Below the pieces are notes generated by a model. That model was not told where the DNA came from and made no database searches. It worked only from the letters and a program-made list of their open reading frames with translations. The position numbers were made by a program, and so were the translations under genes. Shown here in pieces: positions 50,577 through 64,000 of a stretch of DNA of 64,000 bases. The DNA comes from a phage: the sequence record PZ452611.1; one strand, written 5' to 3'. Within the stretch, counting starts at the first letter, position 1. Every line of letters begins with the position of its first letter.

Positions 50577-51842
50577 TTATTCCAGCACCTCCCAAGTTTC
50601 TGGATTAAGATTGCGGAATGCGATACCCACAGGGAATTGAGGCACACCGTCCACCGTACGCTGTTGGAATTTTATCGTGATAAATTTGCCAACATATGAG
50701 CAGCATTTTTCGTAGTTCCTTACGGCAAAAGTGCCTTTCATTTTGCATTTGCATTGTGTCCCATCTTTCTCTTCGCAGATAAGAACACCTTCCCCGTTTT
50801 TATCTTTTTCAACACCGATCACTTTTGCTTCAACATCGGTGAACAGTTTCCACTTGAGCAGATCAGTAGAGCGTTGACCGTATTCGTAGGTGCCACGGAA
50901 GTTACGAATAATAGATCCTTCATAACCTTCCTGCATGTACTGTCCGATGGAGTTGCGAACCTCTTCCTCGTTGTAGGAGATCTTGAAAGGAACACCCTCG
51001 ACGTTGGTGAGATGGTTAACTTCACAATAATCAATAACTTCCTGAAGATTTGTGGCCCGATCTTCCCAGCGATGGATGCAATCAGGAACATCGAACACCA
51101 TCAGTTTCAGGTCATAAGAGCAGTAACCTCCATACCGATCAGAATCACGGACAGGTTCTTCATAAACCGGATGATCAACCTTGTTGAAGTCTTTCCATGT
51201 CTCCTCTCCGGCCTTGATCGCTTTCTCACGGCGTTTTATGTCTGCCATGAAATCCTTATCAATTTCTTTCTCAATGTCTTCCAGACTACGCCATTTCTTA
51301 ACGAGGGAGGTTATTTTCTGCAACGGTAAACCGTGAATGTAGAACTCCCCATCAAATTCATCAAAGCCTGTTTCTTCATGCAGGTCTTGTAGCTCACGGA
51401 GGATGTTACCTTTCGGCTCATACACTTTGTTACCGCGAGAGATGAATTTAGGTACACCGTCTACGAATTTGACAAAGCAACGGTTCCCGTCAAGTTTGTG
51501 TTGCAGGTGGCATGGATACACAATAGCGTGTGGTTTTTTCGAAGCATCTTGCGCCAGCATAGGTGAAATGTCAATGGCCTCAAGGTCTTCGACATTTTCT
51601 TTGTAACCCAGCCGGACTTGCTTTTCCCATTTAGACTGCGCCTCTAAAACAGCTTGTTCTTCTGCTGTAGTTTCGTTGGATCGCCCGATGTTTTTGGCTT
51701 CACATTTTGTGGTTTTTGATTGTACAGCGCCACCAACCCTGCCGAACACAACAATAACCTCGTTGCCGCTTGTATCTACTTTCCACATCTGGATGGACCC
51801 GTCTTTATTGCGAGCATAAAGTGTTGTTTTGAATTGATGCAT
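50577..51842 (-). CDS. ATP-dependent DNA ligase
   Basis: KLDGNR motif I; C-terminal EGSIIRNF...GQRS and PQFPVGIAFR match virus-type ligases. Confidence 0.8.
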   Translation of the reverse strand: MHQFKTTLYARNKDGSIQMWKVDTSGNEVIVVFGRVGGAVQSKTTKCEAKNIGRSNETTAEEQAVLEAQSKWEKQVRLGYKENVEDLEAIDISPMLAQDASKKPHAIVYPCHLQHKLDGNRCFVKFVDGVPKFISRGNKVYEPKGNILRELQDLHEETGFDEFDGEFYIHGLPLQKITSLVKKWRSLEDIEKEIDKDFMADIKRREKAIKAGEETWKDFNKVDHPVYEEPVRDSDRYGGYCSYDLKLMVFDVPDCIHRWEDRATNLQEVIDYCEVNHLTNVEGVPFKISYNEEEVRNSIGQYMQEGYEGSIIRNFRGTYEYGQRSTDLLKWKLFTDVEAKVIGVEKDKNGEGVLICEEKDGTQCKCKMKGTFAVRNYEKCCSYVGKFITIKFQQRTVDGVPQFPVGIAFRNLNPETWEVLE

Positions 51843-52406: not shown

Positions 52407-52469
52407 AACTTTCTACCTCACTTGCATACTTTCCGAAACAAGTAAAGCCGGGTAATCCCGGCTATGTTG

Positions 52470-53183
52470 TTAAATATACTCTGTTACATCCTTGAAGCTC
52501 GAAGGCTTCATGATCTTACCTTTACTGTCAAGGAATATGATAACTTTATTACCGTTGTAGAATTCTTCCTTGGCAACAAAACCTTCATATCGACCATCAA
52601 AGCGTCGTTCAAGATCTTTAATCTCCAACTCGATTAGTTGTTCAGCAGGCATATCTGCACTGGCACCGTGTGAATACCGTAGATGGTTGACCCGTGCAAA
52701 CTTGCTGTCATTCGATTTGAGAACCTTACGCATCATCCCGCACACATCGCCGCGAAGCTGGAACAGCAAAGCTGTTGACAACTCTGCTAAGCGGTAAGCA
52801 GACGCTCTTTGCTTAGAGGTGTTTTTCGCAGCGATCAGTGTATCATAGAACTCGCCGATCTTGAACTTAAGACCTCGCGGATTATCAAACAGGTTTGACC
52901 ACTTTTCGTGATTATCATTAACAAGATAAGCGGCATAACTTGTGACAACGTGAAGATCGCAGGCCTCTTTTAGCAGGTGATCTCCACCATCACCTTTCTC
53001 CAGCTCTTCCAAAACCTCATTGAACTCTTCCTCAATGAAGCTAAGCTGTAATTCGAATGGTGTGTATGATTTTTTCACTTTAGCTGCCACACGGTTCCAG
53101 TTTTCCACCCAATTGGCAGACCAAAGGTAGTTTTCAGGCTGAGACAGTTTTTCCAGGTTGTCGATCAGTTTAGTATTCAGCAT
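52470..53183 (-). CDS. MazG-like nucleotide pyrophosphohydrolase, putative
   Basis: FIEEEFNEVLEELEKGD...LKEACDL resembles MazG EExxE/D box; weak. Confidence 0.35.
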   Translation of the reverse strand: MLNTKLIDNLEKLSQPENYLWSANWVENWNRVAAKVKKSYTPFELQLSFIEEEFNEVLEELEKGDGGDHLLKEACDLHVVTSYAAYLVNDNHEKWSNLFDNPRGLKFKIGEFYDTLIAAKNTSKQRASAYRLAELSTALLFQLRGDVCGMMRKVLKSNDSKFARVNHLRYSHGASADMPAEQLIELEIKDLERRFDGRYEGFVAKEEFYNGNKVIIFLDSKGKIMKPSSFKDVTEYI

Positions 53184-53196
53184 TAAAGGTCTCCTT

Positions 53197-53958
53197 TTAA
53201 AGTTCCATAAAGTTTTCTACAGTTTCAATAAATGCTTTATCAGAGAAAGCGTCAACAGCACCGTTAAACCATACAGGGATCCCGCGATCCTCATATTGAT
53301 AAAGGTCGCTACGTGAAATGCCACTTCCATCTGCACTCTGCGAATCATACTTGTTTACAATCAGCAGTTTTGTTCCTTTACAAGTAGCAGGAAACAATTC
53401 CCAGTTAAAATTAATAACTGTGTTAGAACAACCCACTAGGATCACCATATCATTGCTGGTGAGAGATGTCAACAGGTCATACATGTCTGTATACTTAGGA
53501 GCAACCTCGCCGAAGAACACTACATTGGGCTTAACCCAGGTATACTTGCCTGTATCTACCTCCGTGTATCCGATATTTTTAATTACATCATTACCTTCAG
53601 CATCTTCGTAGGTGATTTCAGGCAAATACCCGTGGACATGTAAAATATCTTCATGTTTTACACCAGCACGCTCCAGCAAATCATCTACATTGGTGGTAAG
53701 GTTGATCACACGACCAGACCAGCGGGAATACCACTCAGCGATCCGAAGATGTGCAAGGTTAGGATCAACACTGCCCAGAGCTACACGACGTGCATTGTAA
53801 AAGTCATGCACCTTATAGTAGTTCTTGGCAAAGGTGTGGATGTTGCACACCTCATCGATGCTGAAATTCTCCCACATTGCAGTGCTACCAGATCGGAAGG
53901 TGGGAATACCAGATTCTGCGCTCAAACCAGCACCAGAAATAACAATAAGTCGTCGCAT
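53197..53958 (-). CDS. Sir2-family NAD-dependent deacylase / ADP-ribosyltransferase
   Basis: ISGAGLSAESGIPTFR sirtuin signature, HG motif. Confidence 0.8.
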   Translation of the reverse strand: MRRLIVISGAGLSAESGIPTFRSGSTAMWENFSIDEVCNIHTFAKNYYKVHDFYNARRVALGSVDPNLAHLRIAEWYSRWSGRVINLTTNVDDLLERAGVKHEDILHVHGYLPEITYEDAEGNDVIKNIGYTEVDTGKYTWVKPNVVFFGEVAPKYTDMYDLLTSLTSNDMVILVGCSNTVINFNWELFPATCKGTKLLIVNKYDSQSADGSGISRSDLYQYEDRGIPVWFNGAVDAFSDKAFIETVENFMEL

Positions 53959-53966
53959 AAATGTCC

Positions 53967-54317
53967 TTAGTAGATGTTTTGTTTGATCTCTATTCCAAAC
54001 TTCTTGAATGAGTCAGCAGCAAGCATAAATTTACGAGCTGCCGATGGATTAGAAGTATGCACGAAAATAATCACGTTGTCAATAAGTGGTGGCTTTCCGA
54101 ATACAAGTTTCTCCTCTAGCGCAGAGAAGCAGTCGTACCCTTCAAGAACTTCACCTAGATCATTGTCAAAATACCATTCAGATACGCGTCTGTAGAGCTT
54201 TCTCTTATCATTAAGAAAATCCATAAATTCAGAAGAATTCTTTAGCCACAGAGCGTCTGGGAGTCCATAATCTGACGGATCTCTAAAATCATCAAGCCAC
54301 ACAATCCACTTCTTCAT
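53967..54317 (-). CDS. hypothetical protein
   Basis: start set to internal Met MKKWIVW overlapping RNA ligase stop (track 53967-54389). Confidence 0.4.
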   Translation of the reverse strand: MKKWIVWLDDFRDPSDYGLPDALWLKNSSEFMDFLNDKRKLYRRVSEWYFDNDLGEVLEGYDCFSALEEKLVFGKPPLIDNVIIFVHTSNPSAARKFMLAADSFKKFGIEIKQNIY

Positions 54318-55249
54318 TGCATATAGTCCTCGTTGTGGAAATAGCAGTCCAGTATCTCGCGACGCTCCTGCTCTAATAAGCAATTCCACACATCTTCTGT
54401 ATAGTTGCTACGAATAAATTTTACCATACCGTAAAACTCCTCGTCAACACGTTTAAAAATATCGTCATCCCAAATCTTCCATGCTTTACCTCTCATTACG
54501 GCCTTCCGTGCCAAATAGTATGGAGACTTGATCTTCAGCTGCAGGTCATAAGGGTAGTAAGGCTTACGGATCATATACCCTTCGCCCCTTGTTTCTGCAG
54601 CTAATTCTTTTGCATAGCTGAACGGGATTTCACGCACAGTGTGAGGACGTTTTGCACCAAGGTATTTGGCAATCCCATCTAAAGCTGCTTCTGGTAGCAT
54701 TATTCCAGAATCATTATATCTGCAACCTATCAAATATGCGCCATGGTCTTCTTGAACAATATGCGGATCTGAAGGGTGACAAATTTCAAACATGAATGTC
54801 ATGTTTTCATTGCCCATAACCTTCTTGATAAGATCTAAATCACCACATTGCTCTTGGATGGTTTCCTTTGCAAGGTTACAATATGGAGAATCAAGAGACC
54901 CGGTTGTTGAGAACAATAGGTCACCTTTATGAGATGATACCACACCAAGGAATCCGTTCTTTTTCTCTACCGCAGTAACAAGTTTACTGTCCGGTAGGTT
55001 GGTGGAGTTTTCTCCTAAGTTGAATACTTTTGTGAAAGGCCATGCCACAACATTCCCCTCATTGCCAACAACAATACCTCGGCACTCCAGTAAACGCGGA
55101 GACAAATGCCACAGATTGTTGTAGAATACTTTTCTGGCATATTTATAGATCTTTAATCCAAGATCTGGATAATACCGACTGGTTACAAGACCTTTGTCTA
55201 CTAGGTCATCTGCATTAAAATACTTCATCATACGTTCCTCATTTGTCAT
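54314..55249 (-). CDS. RNA ligase, T4 Rnl1-like
   Basis: LLECRGIVV and KVFNLGEN match T4 Rnl1 (LPDALECRGIMF, KFFNLNEN); nucleotidyltransferase KxNG motif EKKNG. Confidence 0.8.
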   Translation of the reverse strand: MTNEERMMKYFNADDLVDKGLVTSRYYPDLGLKIYKYARKVFYNNLWHLSPRLLECRGIVVGNEGNVVAWPFTKVFNLGENSTNLPDSKLVTAVEKKNGFLGVVSSHKGDLLFSTTGSLDSPYCNLAKETIQEQCGDLDLIKKVMGNENMTFMFEICHPSDPHIVQEDHGAYLIGCRYNDSGIMLPEAALDGIAKYLGAKRPHTVREIPFSYAKELAAETRGEGYMIRKPYYPYDLQLKIKSPYYLARKAVMRGKAWKIWDDDIFKRVDEEFYGMVKFIRSNYTEDVWNCLLEQERREILDCYFHNEDYMQ

Positions 55250-55293
55250 TTTGTCAGTCTATCCTGCCACACAAATAACCTAGTGTCAACACT

Positions 55294-55321
55294 TGAAATT
55301 AACAAAACAGTTAGGTATACT
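55294..55321 (+). promoter_or_regulatory. sigma70-like promoter TTGAAA-N16-TATACT in divergent intergenic region
   Basis: strand switch between Rnl1 (minus) and kinase (plus). Confidence 0.45.
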
Positions 55322-55349
55322 ATCATTAAAATTAAAACGGAGGATTGCT

Positions 55350-55760
55350 ATGTCTAAAATGCTATATATCGTGCGTGGTCTGCCAGGGTCTGGCAAATCA
55401 ACACTGGCAAATGCGCTATCTTTAGAAGGTCTGTATCCACATTTTGAGAACGACATGTTCTGGTATGACGATGACGGCAATTACAACTGGGATGCAAGTA
55501 AAGTAACACTCGCAGCAAAATGGTGCAAAGATAACGTAGAAGATATGATGCGTATGGGATACGACCGTATCGTGGTAAGTAATACGTTTACAAAAGAAAA
55601 ACATGTGCAGGAATATGTTGACATGGCAATCAGTCATGGGTATAGTTATACCGTGATCGTGGTTGAAAACCGCCACGGTAATAAAAGCATTCATGATGTT
55701 CCAGACAAGGTTGTGGATCGTATGGAACGCCAGCTTAAAAACTGCATTAAACTTAAATGA
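55350..55760 (+). CDS. P-loop polynucleotide kinase-like protein
   Basis: LYIVRGLPGSGKST Walker A as in T4 Pnkp kinase domain; start moved to Met after GGAGG (track 55293). Confidence 0.6.
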   Translation: MSKMLYIVRGLPGSGKSTLANALSLEGLYPHFENDMFWYDDDGNYNWDASKVTLAAKWCKDNVEDMMRMGYDRIVVSNTFTKEKHVQEYVDMAISHGYSYTVIVVENRHGNKSIHDVPDKVVDRMERQLKNCIKLK

Positions 55761-55767
55761 GGAATGT

Positions 55768-56322
55768 ATGAAATACTTTGTAACAAGCGACACACACTTT
55801 CTCCACCAGCGGGTCATGGAGTTTGATTCATGTCAAAAACACAGATCTCAGTATGATCACAATCTTGACAGTATGAATGCGGGAATCATCGCCGAGTGGA
55901 ACTCTGTTGTGTCACCTGCAGACACTGTGTTCCACTTGGGAGATATTGCGTGCACTAATGATAAGAATATCAACAAATTACTTCCAGATATTCTAAATAT
56001 GTTGAACGGACATATTATTCTTGTTCGTGGCAACCATGACACAAGGACGACTGTCAGAATTATGAAAGAGTTCTATCACGAGGTTGTAGATTATTACGAG
56101 CTTCGCCACAACAAGAATTTGATCTGTATGAGCCATTACCAATTTGCAAAGTGGAACAGAAAGCCTCACGGATCAGTCCAACTGTTCGGTCATGCTCACG
56201 GAACCACACAACAGTTGTTTGGCAGGCAGCTTGATGTCGGTTGGGATGTGTGGGGGAGACTCTTACCATTAGAAGAGGCATACCGTACTGCAATGAGTTT
56301 TGATATTGACAGCAGGGAGTAA
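55768..56322 (+). CDS. calcineurin-like metallophosphoesterase
   Basis: DTHF, GDIA, VRGNHD motifs; start moved to MKYFVTSD (track 55663). Confidence 0.7.
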   Translation: MKYFVTSDTHFLHQRVMEFDSCQKHRSQYDHNLDSMNAGIIAEWNSVVSPADTVFHLGDIACTNDKNINKLLPDILNMLNGHIILVRGNHDTRTTVRIMKEFYHEVVDYYELRHNKNLICMSHYQFAKWNRKPHGSVQLFGHAHGTTQQLFGRQLDVGWDVWGRLLPLEEAYRTAMSFDIDSRE

Positions 56323-59708: not shown

Positions 59709-59805
59709 GCTAGGTAAGCCCTTTGGCAAGGGCGAGGATTTTTAATCCTGAAAATAGACGAGGTAGTCGTTGAATACATAGGTGGTTCGATTCCATCACC
59801 TAGCA
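59709..59805 (+). tRNA. aberrant tRNA-like element (possible tRNA-Lys TTT-like with about 30 nt extra arm)
   Basis: perfect acceptor GCTAGGT/ACCTAGC, canonical D-arm and T-arm (GGTGGTTCGATTCCATC), anticodon-like loop TTTTTAA, but 30 nt insertion between anticodon and T arms. Confidence 0.35.
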
Positions 59806-59889: not shown

Positions 59890-59964
59890 GGCCCTGTAGC
59901 TGGAAGGTTCAAGCAAGCGACTCATAATCGCCAGACGGTGGTTCAATTCCACCCAGGGCCACCA
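59890..59964 (+). tRNA. tRNA-Met (anticodon CAT; Ile-lysidine type not excluded)
   Basis: acceptor GGCCCTG/CAGGGCC, loop CTCATAA, T-loop TTCAATT, CCA. Confidence 0.75.
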
Positions 59965-60872: not shown

Positions 60873-61156
60873 GAGTTGCCACACTGTTTATTGCGTGCTT
60901 GTTATTATGTGGGTGTGCAACCAGCGTTGAGAGAGAATACAAGATTGACCCTCCGGATGTAGGAAGGTTGATTGTTAAACCCCCAGAAGGTGCCATGAAA
61001 CCACCTGCTAAAGCTATGCCTTTGAAGAAAGGTGCGCCAGATGCAGTGAATTCTGGCATTATGAGGGATAATAATCTGTCTTGTAGCAATGATAGAGCTA
61101 AATTGATCATTTTGCAAGACTATATTAGAACACTGTTTCCAAAGGAGAGAGGTTAA
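60869..61156 (+). CDS. o-spanin (Rz1-like outer-membrane lipoprotein), putative
   Basis: lipobox LLLCGCA, Pro-rich periplasmic segment. Confidence 0.6.
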   Translation: MRVATLFIACLLLCGCATSVEREYKIDPPDVGRLIVKPPEGAMKPPAKAMPLKKGAPDAVNSGIMRDNNLSCSNDRAKLIILQDYIRTLFPKERG

Positions 61157-61584
61157 TGTCTAAGATTTACGGACCGTGTTCTGAAAAGCAGAAGATGATC
61201 CTCGAAAACGATGCAGATATCTTGGTAATCGGCGGTGCAGCAGGGTCTGGCAAGTCGTTCCTCTTGCAGTTGATGCCACTTAAAATTATTGATGACCCCC
61301 ACAGCTCTGTGGTTATGTTCCGAAGAACAACCCCACAGTTGGAAGGTGAGGGTGGGCTATGGCCTAAAGCAGTAGCTATTTATAGTGATCTGCCTGAAAA
61401 CATTAAGCCAAAGTTTAGAGAGAAGGATCATAAGTTCATTTTTCCACGGTTTGATCCGAACACTGGCAAGTGGGATAGAAGCAAAAAGGGAGCTGTTGTA
61501 AAATACTGCCACATGGAGTATGTACAAGATAAGCTTAACCATCAGGGGCTTGAGTACACCATGGTTTGCTTCGATGAGGGTTAA
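61156..61584 (+). CDS. terminase large subunit, exon 1 (ATPase N-terminus)
   Basis: Walker A GGAAGSGKS, Walker B-like CFDE; frame closes at TAA inside putative intron. Confidence 0.6.
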   Translation: MSKIYGPCSEKQKMILENDADILVIGGAAGSGKSFLLQLMPLKIIDDPHSSVVMFRRTTPQLEGEGGLWPKAVAIYSDLPENIKPKFREKDHKFIFPRFDPNTGKWDRSKKGAVVKYCHMEYVQDKLNHQGLEYTMVCFDEG

Positions 61585-61587
61585 TTT

Positions 61588-61920
61588 GTAGCTCTCGTAA
61601 AACCTCCCTAATTGCGGGGAAATCTTTATTATTGACACCACCAACCTGTTATGGTAACATAATAGAGGCTTCGAAGAGAGATCGAAGGTATGGTAACAGT
61701 GTGTTAATTTAGATAATCCGCAGCGAAGCATCCGAGAGGATGAACGTTCAACGACTAGTCGAAAGACGTAGAATCAAGCGATTCGAAACGGGAGGGTAAG
61801 CGATTGTTGTCGCTTATAAGATATAGTCTGGTCTGCATGGAGACATGCAGCTGCCTGAGAATGGCGGGGCAAGACTAGCGACCTTGCCTGAACATAAACG
61901 ACACAATTCGAATGGGAGCA
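61588..61920 (+). mobile_element. group-I-like intron 1 (no ORF), boundaries approximate
   Basis: ORF-free insert between terminase frames; shares AATTGCGGGGAAATC and ATAGTCTGGTCTGCATGGAGACATGCAGC blocks with second insert. Confidence 0.5.
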
Positions 61921-61933
61921 GATAGACTATCTG

Positions 61934-62221
61934 ATGTCTCGTCTGCGATCTCAGTCAAAGTATCCATCAAGAATGGTTATCAGCTGTAACCCTGATTCAG
62001 AACACATGCTTGCCAAACTGGTTAGATGGTGGTTGGATGATGAAGGGTATCCAGATCCGGAGAAATGCGGTAAGAAAAGATATTTTATCCGACGCGACGG
62101 TGAATTTATTTGGGGAGACTCTAAGGAAGAGTTGATAGAGAAATACACCACGGTTAACGGACTGGGTGTAGAGATCAAGCCAAGACCGTTGTCATTCTCG
62201 TTCATAGGCGCAACCATTAAA
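61934..62221 (+). CDS. terminase large subunit, exon 2 (approximate)
   Basis: short reading frame (open from about 61898) between the two inserts; assigned by position, no terminase motif recognised in this segment. Confidence 0.45.
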
Positions 62222-62224
62222 TGA

Positions 62225-63194
62225 TAGTGGCTTCGTGCAGAAATGCACGTCGAATAACTTCGTTAATTGCTGGGAAATCCGATTGCTAAACGGACAATCA
62301 GCAGCTATAATTACCCTTCCGAACCTGTAGTAGGGAGATGTTTGAAATGAAAAATTTAGGCTTTTTAGGCTACAATCATTATTGTGCTACATACGATGGC
62401 AGAATTTACAGTCTGTATTCTAATAAATTCCTCCATCCTAATGTGCAGAAAAAGACTGGCTATGCTATGGTAACTTTGTGCGAGGACGGTAAAAAGTTCC
62501 AAGTGCTCGTTCACAGAGTGATTGCTATGACTTTTGTTGATAATGACAATCCCAGCGTGAAAACTCAAGTAAACCACCTAGATGGTAATAAGTTGAATAA
62601 CGCCGCATGGAACCTTGAGTGGACAACGCCTGAGGAAAACACACATCACGCTCATGAAATGGGACTTAAAAAGGACTATGTCAATAAATACAGGTCCCTG
62701 GATGATGCCACCGCTCTTGAAATATGTAGGCTGTTAGAGCAAGGCGCAAGGGTAAAAGACATTTGTGAAATGTTTGGTGTCAATCAACCACTTGTAAGTG
62801 GTATAAAGAATGGCTCAGTATACCCAGATATTTCTAAAGAGTTTAACTTTAGAAAAGTGCCAACCTCTAATCGGATAAGTGAGCACAAGATAATAGGTAT
62901 CTGCGAGGATCTTAGTGATAAGGTCTTGTGTGTAAATAAAATAGCTAAGAAGTGGGGAGTAAGTTTTAGTGTTGTTAAAGGAATAAAAGACCGTAAGACT
63001 TACACCTATATTTCAAACAATTACGATTGGTAATGTAGTTCAACGACTATCCTGAGAGGGAGTAGGGCGCAAGCTTATGGCGCTCGAAAAGCGAAGCACC
63101 CTGAAATGGGTGGTGATATAGTCTACTCTGCATGGTAACATGCAGCAGCACGTAAAGGTGCGGAAGGTGGTGTTGCGACCACCTTTGAATATAA
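62225..63194 (+). mobile_element. group-I-like intron 2 carrying HNH homing endonuclease, boundaries approximate
   Basis: conserved blocks shared with intron 1 (TTAATTGCTGGGAAATCC; ATAGTCTACTCTGCATGGTAACATGCAGC at 63118-63146); internal free-standing ORF. Confidence 0.55.
62338..63033 (+). CDS. HNH homing endonuclease (HNH_3 with C-terminal NUMOD/HTH-like repeats)
   Basis: VHRVIAMTF...NHLDGNKLNNAAWNLEWTTPEEN HNH motif. Confidence 0.85.
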   Translation: MFEMKNLGFLGYNHYCATYDGRIYSLYSNKFLHPNVQKKTGYAMVTLCEDGKKFQVLVHRVIAMTFVDNDNPSVKTQVNHLDGNKLNNAAWNLEWTTPEENTHHAHEMGLKKDYVNKYRSLDDATALEICRLLEQGARVKDICEMFGVNQPLVSGIKNGSVYPDISKEFNFRKVPTSNRISEHKIIGICEDLSDKVLCVNKIAKKWGVSFSVVKGIKDRKTYTYISNNYDW

Positions 63195-64000
63195 GGATTC
63201 GATAATCCTGTCTGCTTAAGAGACAACCCAGAATACCTTGCTTTTCTTGAAGGTCTGCCCGAGCTTGAAAAAGCCCAGCTTCTTCATGGCAACTGGTTTG
63301 CAAAGCCTGAGGGTGCAAACTATTTTCAAAGATCTTTCCTTCGTGATGCCGATAGAGTACCCCTTGGATCAGTATCTTGCAGGGCATGGGATAAGGCAGG
63401 AACCGAGAGAACTTCCGGTAATAAATTTCCTGACTTTACCGCCAGTATTAAGGTAAGTAAAGATAGCGACGGCTTTTATTACCTGTCCGGTGATTATTGT
63501 CCTGAGAACGTGGATGACGGGAGGTATTCCACAGGTCTGGAAGGCAAGTTCTGTAAAAAGGCTGGTGAACGAGATGTGATCATCAGGAAACAGGCGCAGT
63601 TTGATGGTGATGATTGTATAATCGTATTCTCTGTGGACCCTGGTCAGGCAGGTAAGAGTGAGTTCTTAACCTCATCCAGATCCTTGCTCGCCGAAGGGTT
63701 CAGGGTTGAAGAAGACCCAATGCCTTCCAACAAATCTAAACTGACAAGGTTCTCACCTTTTGCCAATCTTGCACAACAAGGAATGGTGAGGATTGTAAAA
63801 TCCAGTTTCCATCCTGATACTCTGGAAGCATTTCTGACTGAACTTGAAAAATTCAACGGGGAAAGATCAACATTTAACAGAAAAGACGACTGGGCCGACT
63901 GTGTAGCTTCTGCGATTAATTTCCTGGAGAAAGAGGAGGTAGCACTTCCTTGTGTGATTCCATCAATCTCATCACCTTCTATGTTCAAGCGTTTTATCTA
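63195..64000 (+). CDS. terminase large subunit, exon 3 (nuclease domain), truncated at window end
   Basis: open frame without ATG: LLHGNWF..., VFSVDPGQAGK..., RKDDWADCVASAINF typical of terminase nuclease domain; not in ORF track because no start codon. Confidence 0.65.

Follow-up and report, generated by a model that had tools for sequence, protein, structure and literature searches.

The 64,000-nt stretch of phage DNA analysed here (sequence record PZ452611.1; hereafter the window, whose coordinates are used throughout) carries, at positions 53197–56322, five genes, among which are those for a predicted RNA ligase, a stand-alone P-loop kinase and a metallophosphoesterase (MPP), the components of a putative RNA-repair module. 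This 3.1-kb region is 100% identical, in reverse orientation, to Escherichia phage rV5/V5 (DQ832317, NC_011041) and 90–99% identical to about 118 further V5-like (Vequintavirus) records. The five open reading frames (ORFs) listed in an earlier note on this DNA (the original prediction) all lie at the coordinates and on the strands given there, and they coincide with the deposited coding sequences (CDSs) rv5_gp080 to gp076 of NC_011041. RefSeq names these Sir2, hypothetical protein, 'RNA ligase 1 and tail attachment protein', ATPase and phosphoesterase, in that order, and records of the BASEL collection already label the kinase gene 'polynucleotide kinase'. Separately, 18 MG0656xx GenBank records labelled 'Campylobacter phage' (host Campylobacter jejuni) are ~98% identical to coliphage rV5 in this region; they look like V5-like coliphage genomes and their host label deserves checking.

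The locus is organized as two divergent gene sets. On the plus strand are the kinase gene rv5_gp077 (55350–55760; 136 amino acids) and, starting 7 nt past its stop codon, the MPP gene rv5_gp076 (55768–56322; 184 amino acids). As the original prediction had it, the ligase gene is transcribed away from the kinase gene; the two are separated by a 100-bp intergenic region (55250–55349) in which sigma70-like hexamers (TTGAAA-17-TATACT, 55293–55321) face the kinase gene. Four genes follow one another on the minus strand, encoding the RNA ligase (rv5_gp078, 54314–55249; 311 amino acids), a cREC domain protein (rv5_gp079, 53967–54317; 116 amino acids), a divergent sirtuin (rv5_gp080, 53197–53958; 253 amino acids) and a MazG-like all-alpha nucleoside triphosphate pyrophosphohydrolase (rv5_gp081, 52470–53183; 237 amino acids). 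They are tightly packed, with a 4-nt overlap between ligase and cREC and then gaps of 8 nt (cREC/Sir2) and 13 nt (Sir2/gp081). Just 3′ of the gp081 stop codon is a GC-rich hairpin, AGCCGGG-TAAT-CCCGGCT (52446–52463), with a 7-bp perfect stem containing six G–C pairs. This hairpin resembles a terminator on either strand, lies between the repair operon and gp082/gp083 and is likely to mark the end of a minus-strand ligase–cREC–Sir2–MazG unit. By consensus matching only, the region holds 16 promoter-like sites versus 11.2 ± 2.6 in shuffled sequence, which is not clearly above expectation, and 3 terminator-like sites versus 3.3, which is not above it; these transcription-unit boundaries are therefore only suggestions.

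The ligase, kinase and phosphoesterase

The ligase, gp078, matches RNA_lig_T4_1 (PF09511; 1.9e-14) across the entire profile (positions 1–227 of 227) at 54.5 bits, with a gathering score of 28.3; the Pfam assignments of the Sir2, kinase, MPP and cREC proteins likewise exceed their gathering scores. A single-sequence phmmer search of the Protein Data Bank (PDB) with gp078 returned nothing meaningful. A family profile built from 42 homologues of 41–50% identity finds T4 Rnl1 as its best PDB relative (2c5u, E 5.9e-13), aligning to residues 31–249, that is, to the adenylyltransferase domain only. The sequence motifs that first drew attention to the locus are all present in the translations: LLECRGIVV, TKVFNLGEN and EKKNGF in the ligase, RGLPGSGKST in the kinase and VRGNHD in the MPP. 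Among the 42 ligases, R57 (ECRG), K96/N98/G99 (motif I), F154/E155 (motif III), E223/G224 (motif IV) and K239/K241 (motif V) are invariant, and R57, K96, E155, E223/G224 and K239/K241 align to T4 R54, K99, E159, E227/G228 and K240/K242. When an AlphaFold2 (AF2) model of gp078 (pLDDT 91.3) was compared with the PDB using Foldseek, fungal Trl1-LIG (6n0t) and T4 Rnl1 (2c5u) tied for first place (4.7e-12), followed by archaeal Rnl3 (2e-11 to 1e-8), Rnl5 (~4e-6) and Rnl2 (~4e-5), with DNA ligases far behind. The original prediction of an Rnl1-like ligase thus holds in both profile and structure comparisons, which support gp078 as a predicted ATP-dependent RNA ligase with an Rnl1/Trl1-type adenylyltransferase domain. 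Its family is large, comprising 1680 protein clusters, and is found in 760 phage records whose hosts include Escherichia, Pseudomonas, Streptomyces, Vibrio, Klebsiella, Acinetobacter and others.

The kinase, gp077 (AAA_33, 1e-10; phrog_505 'polynucleotide kinase', 4.7e-10), belongs to a family of ~130-residue stand-alone kinases with more than 7989 matches. Here too a single-sequence phmmer search of the PDB gave nothing meaningful. The best full-length PDB matches of the family profile are Capnocytophaga Pnkp1 (5.5e-5), PSTK (9e-5), T4 Pnk (1.2e-4) and CthPnk (8.6e-4), all of which act on polynucleotides or tRNA, and hhalign pairs the family with the T4 Pnk kinase domain at a probability of 96.6% (E 5.5e-10; the T4 sequence used is 100% identical to X03007). 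Foldseek comparison of an AF2 model (pLDDT 83) places T4 Pnk (1ly1, 8e-6) and CthPnk (4gp6) first, and the top 13 matches, from 8e-6 to 9e-5, are all T4 Pnk, CthPnk or PSTK, although the margin is small, as generic small-molecule kinases appear at ~1e-4, about ten-fold behind. Polynucleotide kinases are thus the best matches by profile and by structure, in line with what had been proposed from the P-loop. Across 43 kinases the P-loop G10-x-P-G-S-G15-K16-S17-T18 is invariant or nearly so, G15, K16 and T18 being strictly invariant. D35, also invariant, is matched with the Asp in the Pnkp1 sequence 'NRDDF' and falls at most one residue off T4 Asp35 in the hhalign alignment, T4 Asp35 and Cth Asp38 being the general base (PMC3902929). 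Invariant T79 aligns to T4 Thr86 (Cth Thr80), which contacts the first phosphodiester, invariant R108 aligns to the T4 lid-region Arg122, and T4 Arg126 aligns to Lys112 of the rV5 protein, with modest alignment confidence at these positions. A literature search for a tie between N4BP2 and phage polynucleotide kinases found nothing; a likeness to eukaryotic N4BP2-type kinases is suggested by a single GenBank product name.

The third enzyme, gp076, scores 30.7 bits against PF00149 (cutoff 21.5; 5.2e-07) and also matches PF12850 (1.6e-06) and phrog_547 (2.7e-51). That the phosphatase is of the metallophosphoesterase type, as its GNHD motif had indicated, is borne out: all five MPP motifs (DxH, GD, GNH[DE], H and GHxH) are present, and across 27 MPP homologues of 29–48% identity H10, G58/D59, G88/N89/H90, H123 and G141/H142/H144 are invariant and D8 nearly so. 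Its closest solved relative is Aquifex aeolicus aq_1665 (1xm7; 3.9e-11 by sequence, 1.3e-23 by profile), and the profile search of the PDB finds only aq_1665, GpdQ-like proteins, 6unc, 3ck2 and YfcE. MPPs are established as 2′,3′-cyclic phosphodiesterases/phosphatases in RNA repair, as in CthPnkp and lambda-Pase (PMC2190708, PMC3675462), and gp076, which belongs to the aq_1665 clade, is predicted to be a 2′,3′-cyclic phosphodiesterase/3′-phosphatase.

Gene linkage and fusions across phages

The association of these three genes extends well beyond rV5. We surveyed 80 IMG/VR loci anchored on ligases 37–89% identical to gp078, searching all ORFs within ±8 kb with hidden Markov models built from curated alignments and taking uniform placement as the expectation. 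A kinase gene is present in 68 of the 80 loci and lies within 1 kb of the ligase in 65 (10.1 expected); an MPP gene occurs in 62 and is no more than 1 kb away in 56 (expectation 9.2). The full ligase–kinase–MPP triad occurs in 56 loci, and in all but one locus the kinase and MPP share the strand of the ligase. The commonest layout is a co-directional MPP–ligase–kinase operon, to which the divergent rV5 layout is the exception. On an unrelated 283-kb contig, a kinase homologue shares 4 bp with the start of a Metallophos gene; an unannotated 285-residue ORF upstream of the kinase–MPP pair in another locus (L083) is not a ligase of the gp078 family.

In 12–13 loci (L039, L040, L044, L045, L047 and L050–L057) kinase and ligase are joined in one polypeptide of 421–432 residues. 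In the fusion at L055:7563-8825, for example, Pfam places AAA_33 at residues 4–103 and RNA_lig_T4_1 at residues 172–355. Similarly, the 737-residue phrog_8238 is matched by the rV5 kinase (profile positions 2–109) and by the rV5 ligase (positions 440–686), a hint that the two may work together. Taken together, adjacency, shared strand and fusion link ligase, kinase and MPP about as strongly as comparative genomics can.

A conserved ORF of 229–237 residues lies just upstream of the fusions (L055:6398-7087, L040:6283-6990). Sought as a substitute phosphatase, it had no Pfam, PHROG or PDB match, and it could be a candidate for an unrecognized 3′-end healing enzyme.

These counts revise part of the original prediction, which had described the system as one of unusual composition with a split healing enzyme. 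The composition is unusual relative to T4 but usual for the gp078 family: with the triad in 56 of 80 loci of a ligase family found in 760 phage records, it is common. Likewise, healing is indeed divided between two proteins in rV5, but such a split is the norm for this family rather than an oddity.

A looser, recurrent co-location involves DNA ligase. An ATP-dependent DNA ligase gene (50577–51842, minus strand) is located at a distance of 2.5 kb from the gene for the RNA ligase, and in 42–43 of the 80 loci a homologue occurs no farther than 8 kb from the RNA ligase.

Accessory genes and the tRNA cluster

The other three minus-strand genes are less constant companions. Sir2 is found in 11 of the 80 ligase loci, cREC in 10 and MazG in 14, MazG never within 1 kb, and the three accompany the ligase only in ~145-kb rV5/phi92-like genomes.

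The 116-residue gp079 had been listed as an unknown that might belong to the same island. It is not an unknown, as it matches Pfam PF20274 cREC_REC, the cyclic-phosphate-processing receiver domain (9.1e-14; 52.3 bits, cutoff 27); its place in the island is borne out, the cREC domain being tied to RNA ligases. A 2021 study of jumbo phages by Iyer et al. (PMC7824862) introduced the domain, connected it with RNA ligases and described it as occurring with RNA-repair genes, never with histidine kinases, and as experimentally uncharacterized. Invariant residues of gp079 are D9, D10, R12, D13 and P14; F50, D51, N52, D53, L54, G55 and E56; H87, S89, N90 and P91; and K96, so that the receiver-like acidic residues D9/D10 and D51/D53 are kept. 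A cREC-anchored survey of 21 loci, 20 of them informative, found a gp078-family ligase in 11 and an MPP in 13, often immediately downstream of cREC. One operon (L156:7983-11436+) reads cREC, MPP, Rnl2-type RNA ligase (PF09414), Rnl1-like ligase, kinase, and so holds two RNA ligase families in one repair operon. On a 518-kb viral contig (L158:7920-9521), an N-terminal cREC (PF20274, 2.6e-18) is fused to a PolyA_pol/CCA-adding-type nucleotidyltransferase (PF01743, 7.7e-34) that has its RNA-binding domain. Bacterial CCA-adding enzymes carry a phosphohydrolase (HD) domain, which the fusion recalls; this supports action of cREC on tRNA 3′-terminal phosphates and suggests that cREC may clear phosphates from tRNA 3′ ends ahead of CCA repair. 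Such a fusion is not mentioned in the texts of PMC9503650 and PMC7824862. An auxiliary role in 3′-end healing is a credible prediction for gp079.

The sirtuin gp080 scores 98.2 bits against PF02146 (cutoff 24; 6.9e-28) and matches phrog_2162 (2e-108). It retains NAD-binding motifs and the catalytic His109; invariant segments are GAGxSxESG (G9-A-G11, S13, E15-S-G17), TTNVDDLLERAG (T88–D92), H109-G110 and KPNV-FF. Among 11 clade members, no CxxC pairs are found in segment 111–142 (between H109 and K143), so this clade is without the Cys4 zinc ribbon. Its scores are far below the cutoffs of the CobB-type NCBIfam equivalogs, the best being 123 bits against a cutoff of 243 and the others 57–105 against 221–395. 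In a Sir2-anchored survey of 60 loci, 11 had the ligase and 8 had cREC. Most of the zinc-ribbon-less relatives reside in ~104–123-kb genomes, T5-like in our reading, where the 8 kb on either side hold neither ligase nor kinase nor MPP. There, Sir2 lies ~300 bp upstream of a HAD_SAK_2 phosphatase gene (PF18143, 4e-20), a family described as 'HAD domain in Swiss Army Knife RNA repair proteins'; one example pairs L085:8001-8816 (Sir2) with L085:9142-9645 (HAD_SAK_2), near PhoH and anaerobic ribonucleotide reductase genes, and about 40 contigs are similar. This sirtuin–HAD pairing, recovered independently here, is configuration 3 of Iyer, Burroughs, Anantharaman and Aravind (2022; Viruses 14:1977, PMC9503650, section 3.7.3), who predicted the present neighbourhood with phage V5 as its prototype and proposed, as a hypothesis, that the sirtuin acts on 2′-phosphates in the manner of KptA/Tpt1. 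The suggestion that the sirtuin belongs to the same island is therefore partly upheld: in the rV5 lineage, where the operon is tight, it is genuinely linked to the module, but overall the link is loose, at 11 of 80 loci seen from the ligase and 11 of 60 seen from Sir2. The last gene, gp081 (phrog_671, 5.4e-22), is MazG-like, with EExxE and ExxD motifs that are conserved in 15 homologues.

A phage tRNA cluster of seven genes, including tRNA-Lys(UUU), lies 3 kb from the module. That tRNA-Lys gene, 97 nt long (59709–59805, plus strand), is missing from RefSeq rV5, where six tRNAs are annotated. ARAGORN reports it as 'tRNA-???', the Rfam tRNA model scores it at 35.5 bits (gathering score 29), and it has a full cloverleaf, the anticodon loop UUUUUAA (anticodon UUU, Lys) and a 26-nt variable-region hairpin. 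BASEL records label it tRNA-Lys and other records tRNA-OTHER or tRNA-TERM, and 108 of 124 V5-like records carry it with at least 99% conservation. PrrC classically targets tRNA-Lys(UUU), which has also been reported as a PARIS target, so V5 may pair tRNA replacement with tRNA repair.

Two further features of the window deserve mention. A CAT-anticodon tRNA (59890–59964, plus strand) is tRNA-Met in RefSeq rV5 and by ARAGORN, and its BASEL orthologue is labelled tRNA-Ile (ATA), implying a lysidine-modified CAU anticodon. The terminase large subunit CDS (~61156–64000, plus strand; L001:13960-15126) is annotated as joined from three pieces (ORF64ABC), and thus as interrupted by intervening sequences.

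A proposed repair pathway and its relation to known systems

Cleavage of tRNA is a widespread bacterial antiphage strategy, and to our knowledge T4 Pnkp plus Rnl1 is the only experimentally established phage repair response. We consider it probable that gp076–gp078 constitute a three-enzyme heal-and-seal pathway, assisted by cREC, that mends RNAs (probably tRNAs) after cleavage by host nucleases. In such a pathway, gp076 would open and remove the 2′,3′-cyclic phosphate left on the 5′ fragment by metal-independent host ribonucleases, gp077 would phosphorylate the 5′-OH of the 3′ fragment, and gp078, adenylylated on Lys96, would activate the 5′-phosphate and seal the break. The likeliest substrates would be tRNAs cleaved in their anticodon loop by nucleases of host defence or toxin systems, and the module would serve in counter-defence and be dispensable where a laboratory host is permissive. 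In the rV5 lineage, three accessory genes (cREC, sirtuin and MazG-like) would be co-transcribed with the ligase: gp079 would probably provide a further way, independent of metal, to open cyclic phosphates at RNA 3′ ends, and gp080 and gp081 might handle 2′-phosphate ends in an NAD-dependent manner or deal with ADP-ribose by-products. The family assignments, the conservation of catalytic residues, the gene linkage and the fusions are direct results of the analysis; it is from homology and gene context that we infer these activities, the substrate and the counter-defence role.

Transposon-insertion data are consistent with this picture. For Bas54, a V5-like phage, the HIDEN-SEQ preprint (10.1101/2025.11.20.689424) reports which genes are essential in E. 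coli K-12, and we assigned the Bas54 orthologues of all six genes from their coinciding order, lengths and product names. The genes for the ligase (insertions in 56/60 TA sites), kinase (33/36), MPP (26/27), Sir2 (48/51) and MazG-like protein (35/40) are rated non-essential, and cREC is rated intermediate (16/21). Dispensability in K-12 fits an accessory or counter-defence role.

Several observations weigh against the proposed pathway, or against parts of it. First, the ligase is not an orthologue of T4 RnlA: against the NCBIfam equivalog TIGR02308 it scores 37.2 bits, with a cutoff of 242.25. After motif V it has ~65 C-terminal residues, modelled as short helices, and lacks the all-helical C-terminal domain of T4 Rnl1 (T4 residues ~255–374, roughly 120 residues). 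Work from the Shuman laboratory reportedly showed that this domain confers tRNA specificity, and tRNA is thus not established as the substrate of gp078. Second, an arginine at the acceptor site, three residues past the general-base Asp, is essential in both T4 (Arg38) and Cth (Arg41) kinases (PMC3902929). The gp077 family has F or W at that position (D35-M-F-W38 in gp077; family consensus EADMFF), with no Arg or Lys in either alignment register; T4 Asp85, moreover, corresponds to Asn78, with modest alignment confidence. For these reasons we call gp077 PNK-like (polynucleotide kinase-like) and do not file it with the T4/Cth Pnk family; its predicted function as an RNA 5′-OH kinase draws on gene context, namely fusion and adjacency, and not on family membership. 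Third, the gp076 profile finds no CthPnkp or lambda-phosphatase chain in the PDB at E ≤ 0.1, and aq_1665 has no assigned function, so the match to it is silent on the substrate of gp076. Fourth, 13 fusion loci have no MPP within 8 kb, and the MPP is therefore not indispensable to the ligase. Fifth, 49 of the 60 Sir2 loci have no ligase, and in two contigs (2974717474 and 3300045988_074297) Sir2 sits ~31 kb from the ligase while cREC is still beside it. Finally, in the part of the HIDEN-SEQ preprint available to us, none of the six genes is significantly depleted in the two Bas54 host comparisons with clinical isolates, and our literature search found no reported activity for any of these proteins.

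The last survey figures bear directly on where the module ends. It is possible, though we give this the lesser credence, that the repair unit comprises ligase, kinase, MPP and perhaps cREC, and that Sir2 and MazG are mere neighbours in the rV5 lineage with other roles: they might alter pools or signals of host NAD+/ADP-ribose or nucleotides, or they might deacylate or ADP-ribosylate some host protein. The scarcity of Sir2 in ligase loci and of ligase or cREC in Sir2 loci, the distance of MazG, the two contigs with a remote Sir2 and the many ~104–123-kb genomes in which the Sir2 clade has no such partners would all follow. Set against this are the packing of the four rV5 minus-strand genes as one unit with gaps of at most 13 nt, the recurrence of the Sir2 clade beside RNA-end-processing enzymes in two unrelated layouts, as argued in PMC9503650, and the loss of the zinc ribbon, which speaks against an ordinary protein-lysine deacylase.

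The opposite extreme is the published proposal of Iyer et al. (2022), with V5 as prototype (PMC9503650), that the full neighbourhood performs a yeast-like, 2′-phosphate-dependent tRNA ligation: cREC would convert the cyclic phosphate into a 2′-phosphate, the kinase would act on the 5′-OH, a Trl1-like ligase would join the ends, the sirtuin would use NAD+ to take off the 2′-phosphate in the way of Tpt1/KptA, and MPP and MazG would process ADP-ribose 1′′,2′′-cyclic phosphate or other by-products. Every component needed is encoded in a row, the gp078 model matches Trl1-LIG equally with T4 Rnl1, and gp080 keeps His109 and its NAD-binding motifs while lacking the peptide-binding zinc module. We nonetheless think it unlikely, since no sirtuin is known to act on RNA 2′-phosphates and most phages with the Sir2 clade have no such ligase nearby. 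Further, most phages with a gp078-family ligase have kinase and MPP and neither Sir2 nor cREC, which rules out a dependence of the whole ligase family on these two. An MPP alone, moreover, can yield 2′-OH/3′-OH ends, as in CthPnkp (PMC2190708), which would make a 2′-phosphate route unnecessary. Equally doubtful is a second, yeast-like route in the rV5 lineage in addition to that of MPP, kinase and ligase, with gp080 as an NAD+-dependent remover of RNA 2′-phosphates (a Tpt1/KptA analogue with a sirtuin fold) and gp079 as an RNA 2′,3′-cyclic phosphodiesterase with a receiver fold; if true, both activities would be new to their folds.

The remaining alternatives fare worse. That the module serves the phage's own RNA metabolism, for instance in maturation or quality control of tRNAs or transcripts, is improbable: the seven tRNA genes 3 kb downstream, with their atypical 97-nt tRNA-Lys(UUU), and the lack of a conditional requirement in the clinical-isolate comparisons of Bas54, so far as the available part of the preprint goes (10.1101/2025.11.20.689424), would suit it, but non-essentiality in K-12 is hard to square with an obligatory processing role, no splicing endonuclease or intron was found, and the tRNA content of triad-bearing phages probably varies widely. 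More improbable still is that kinase and MPP heal DNA ends (5′-OH, 3′-phosphate) for the DNA ligase encoded 2.5 kb away. Besides the recurrence of that ligase in about half of the loci, this idea can draw on the action of T4 Pnkp and mammalian PNKP on DNA and on a faint NCBIfam match of the MPP to the ligase-associated PdeM; that match, however, reaches 19 bits where the cutoff is 150. Fusions join the kinase to RNA ligase and never to DNA ligase, and kinase and MPP are found less than 1 kb from the RNA ligase, the usual distance of the DNA ligase being 2–5 kb. A role for gp078 in tail-fibre attachment, like that of T4 gp63/Rnl1, is barely credible, as it comes from a transferred product name only, and the Bas54 ligase tolerates insertions while the N-terminal domain of T4 rnlA does not (10.1101/2025.11.20.689424), with gp078 also far below the RnlA equivalog cutoff. 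Both DNA-end repair and tail-fibre attachment were rejected on these grounds.

The heal-and-seal pathway proposed here is of interest for several reasons. By its ligase family, found in 760 phage records, the triad is far more widespread than the T4 system. If it were proved to heal and seal cleaved tRNA, and if the nucleases that it overcomes were identified, the host range of therapeutic V5-like and Pakpunavirus phages would be better understood, and the cREC and zinc-less sirtuin are candidates for new enzymology. Beyond a well-supported experimental target, the finding itself adds little to an idea already published for rV5/V5. The locus is annotated and the system-level prediction is in print; what is new is the linkage survey of 80 loci. 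A 2025 Pakpunavirus paper had also read an adjacent kinase and ligase as tRNA repair, the kinase there having no phosphatase domain (PMC12846349). The rV5 locus corresponds to configuration 2 of Iyer et al. (2022), a sirtuin-centred RNA-repair neighbourhood, with all six components present, including gp081. Our survey reverses its emphasis: kinase (68/80) and MPP (62/80) are the constant partners of the ligase, and sirtuin, cREC and MazG are occasional ones.

Compared with T4 Pnkp and Rnl1, which counter PrrC, the rV5 module shares the three predicted chemical steps, the adenylyltransferase domain and motifs of the ligase, and a kinase that aligns to T4 Pnk. It differs in that healing is split over two proteins, and its phosphatase is a binuclear metallophosphoesterase, whereas that of T4 Pnkp is a DxDxT/HAD acylphosphatase. 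Absent from rV5 are the C-terminal domain of T4 Rnl1 and an equivalent of T4 Pnk Arg38.

The original prediction had also likened the arrangement to bacterial Pnkp/Hen1 systems. With respect to Clostridium thermocellum the likeness holds for the enzyme superfamilies, both having a P-loop PNK-like kinase, an MPP and an ATP-dependent RNA ligase, but it does not extend to membership. CthPnkp joins kinase, MPP and ligase in one polypeptide, whereas rV5 has three separate CDSs; the rV5 MPP, unlike that of CthPnkp, is in the aq_1665 clade, and the rV5 ligase is Rnl1/Trl1-like, not of the Pnkp ligase type. Among 39 annotated features within ±6 kb of the rV5 module there is no Hen1 or other methyltransferase. 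We therefore rejected membership on the differing MPP clade, the three separate genes and the missing Hen1, and, as the gp076 profile does not detect CthPnkp or lambda-phosphatase domains, treat the comparison as an analogy.

A last comparison is with fungal and plant Trl1 plus Tpt1, as Trl1-LIG ties with T4 Rnl1 as the best structural match of gp078. The logic of that pathway, in which a cyclic phosphodiesterase, a kinase, a ligase and NAD-dependent 2′-phosphate removal are combined, may find a parallel in the cREC, kinase, ligase and sirtuin of rV5. The Trl1 pathway uses a 2H phosphodiesterase and the ADP-ribosyltransferase fold of Tpt1/KptA for the first and last of these steps, whereas the rV5 candidates would be a Rec-fold cREC and a sirtuin.

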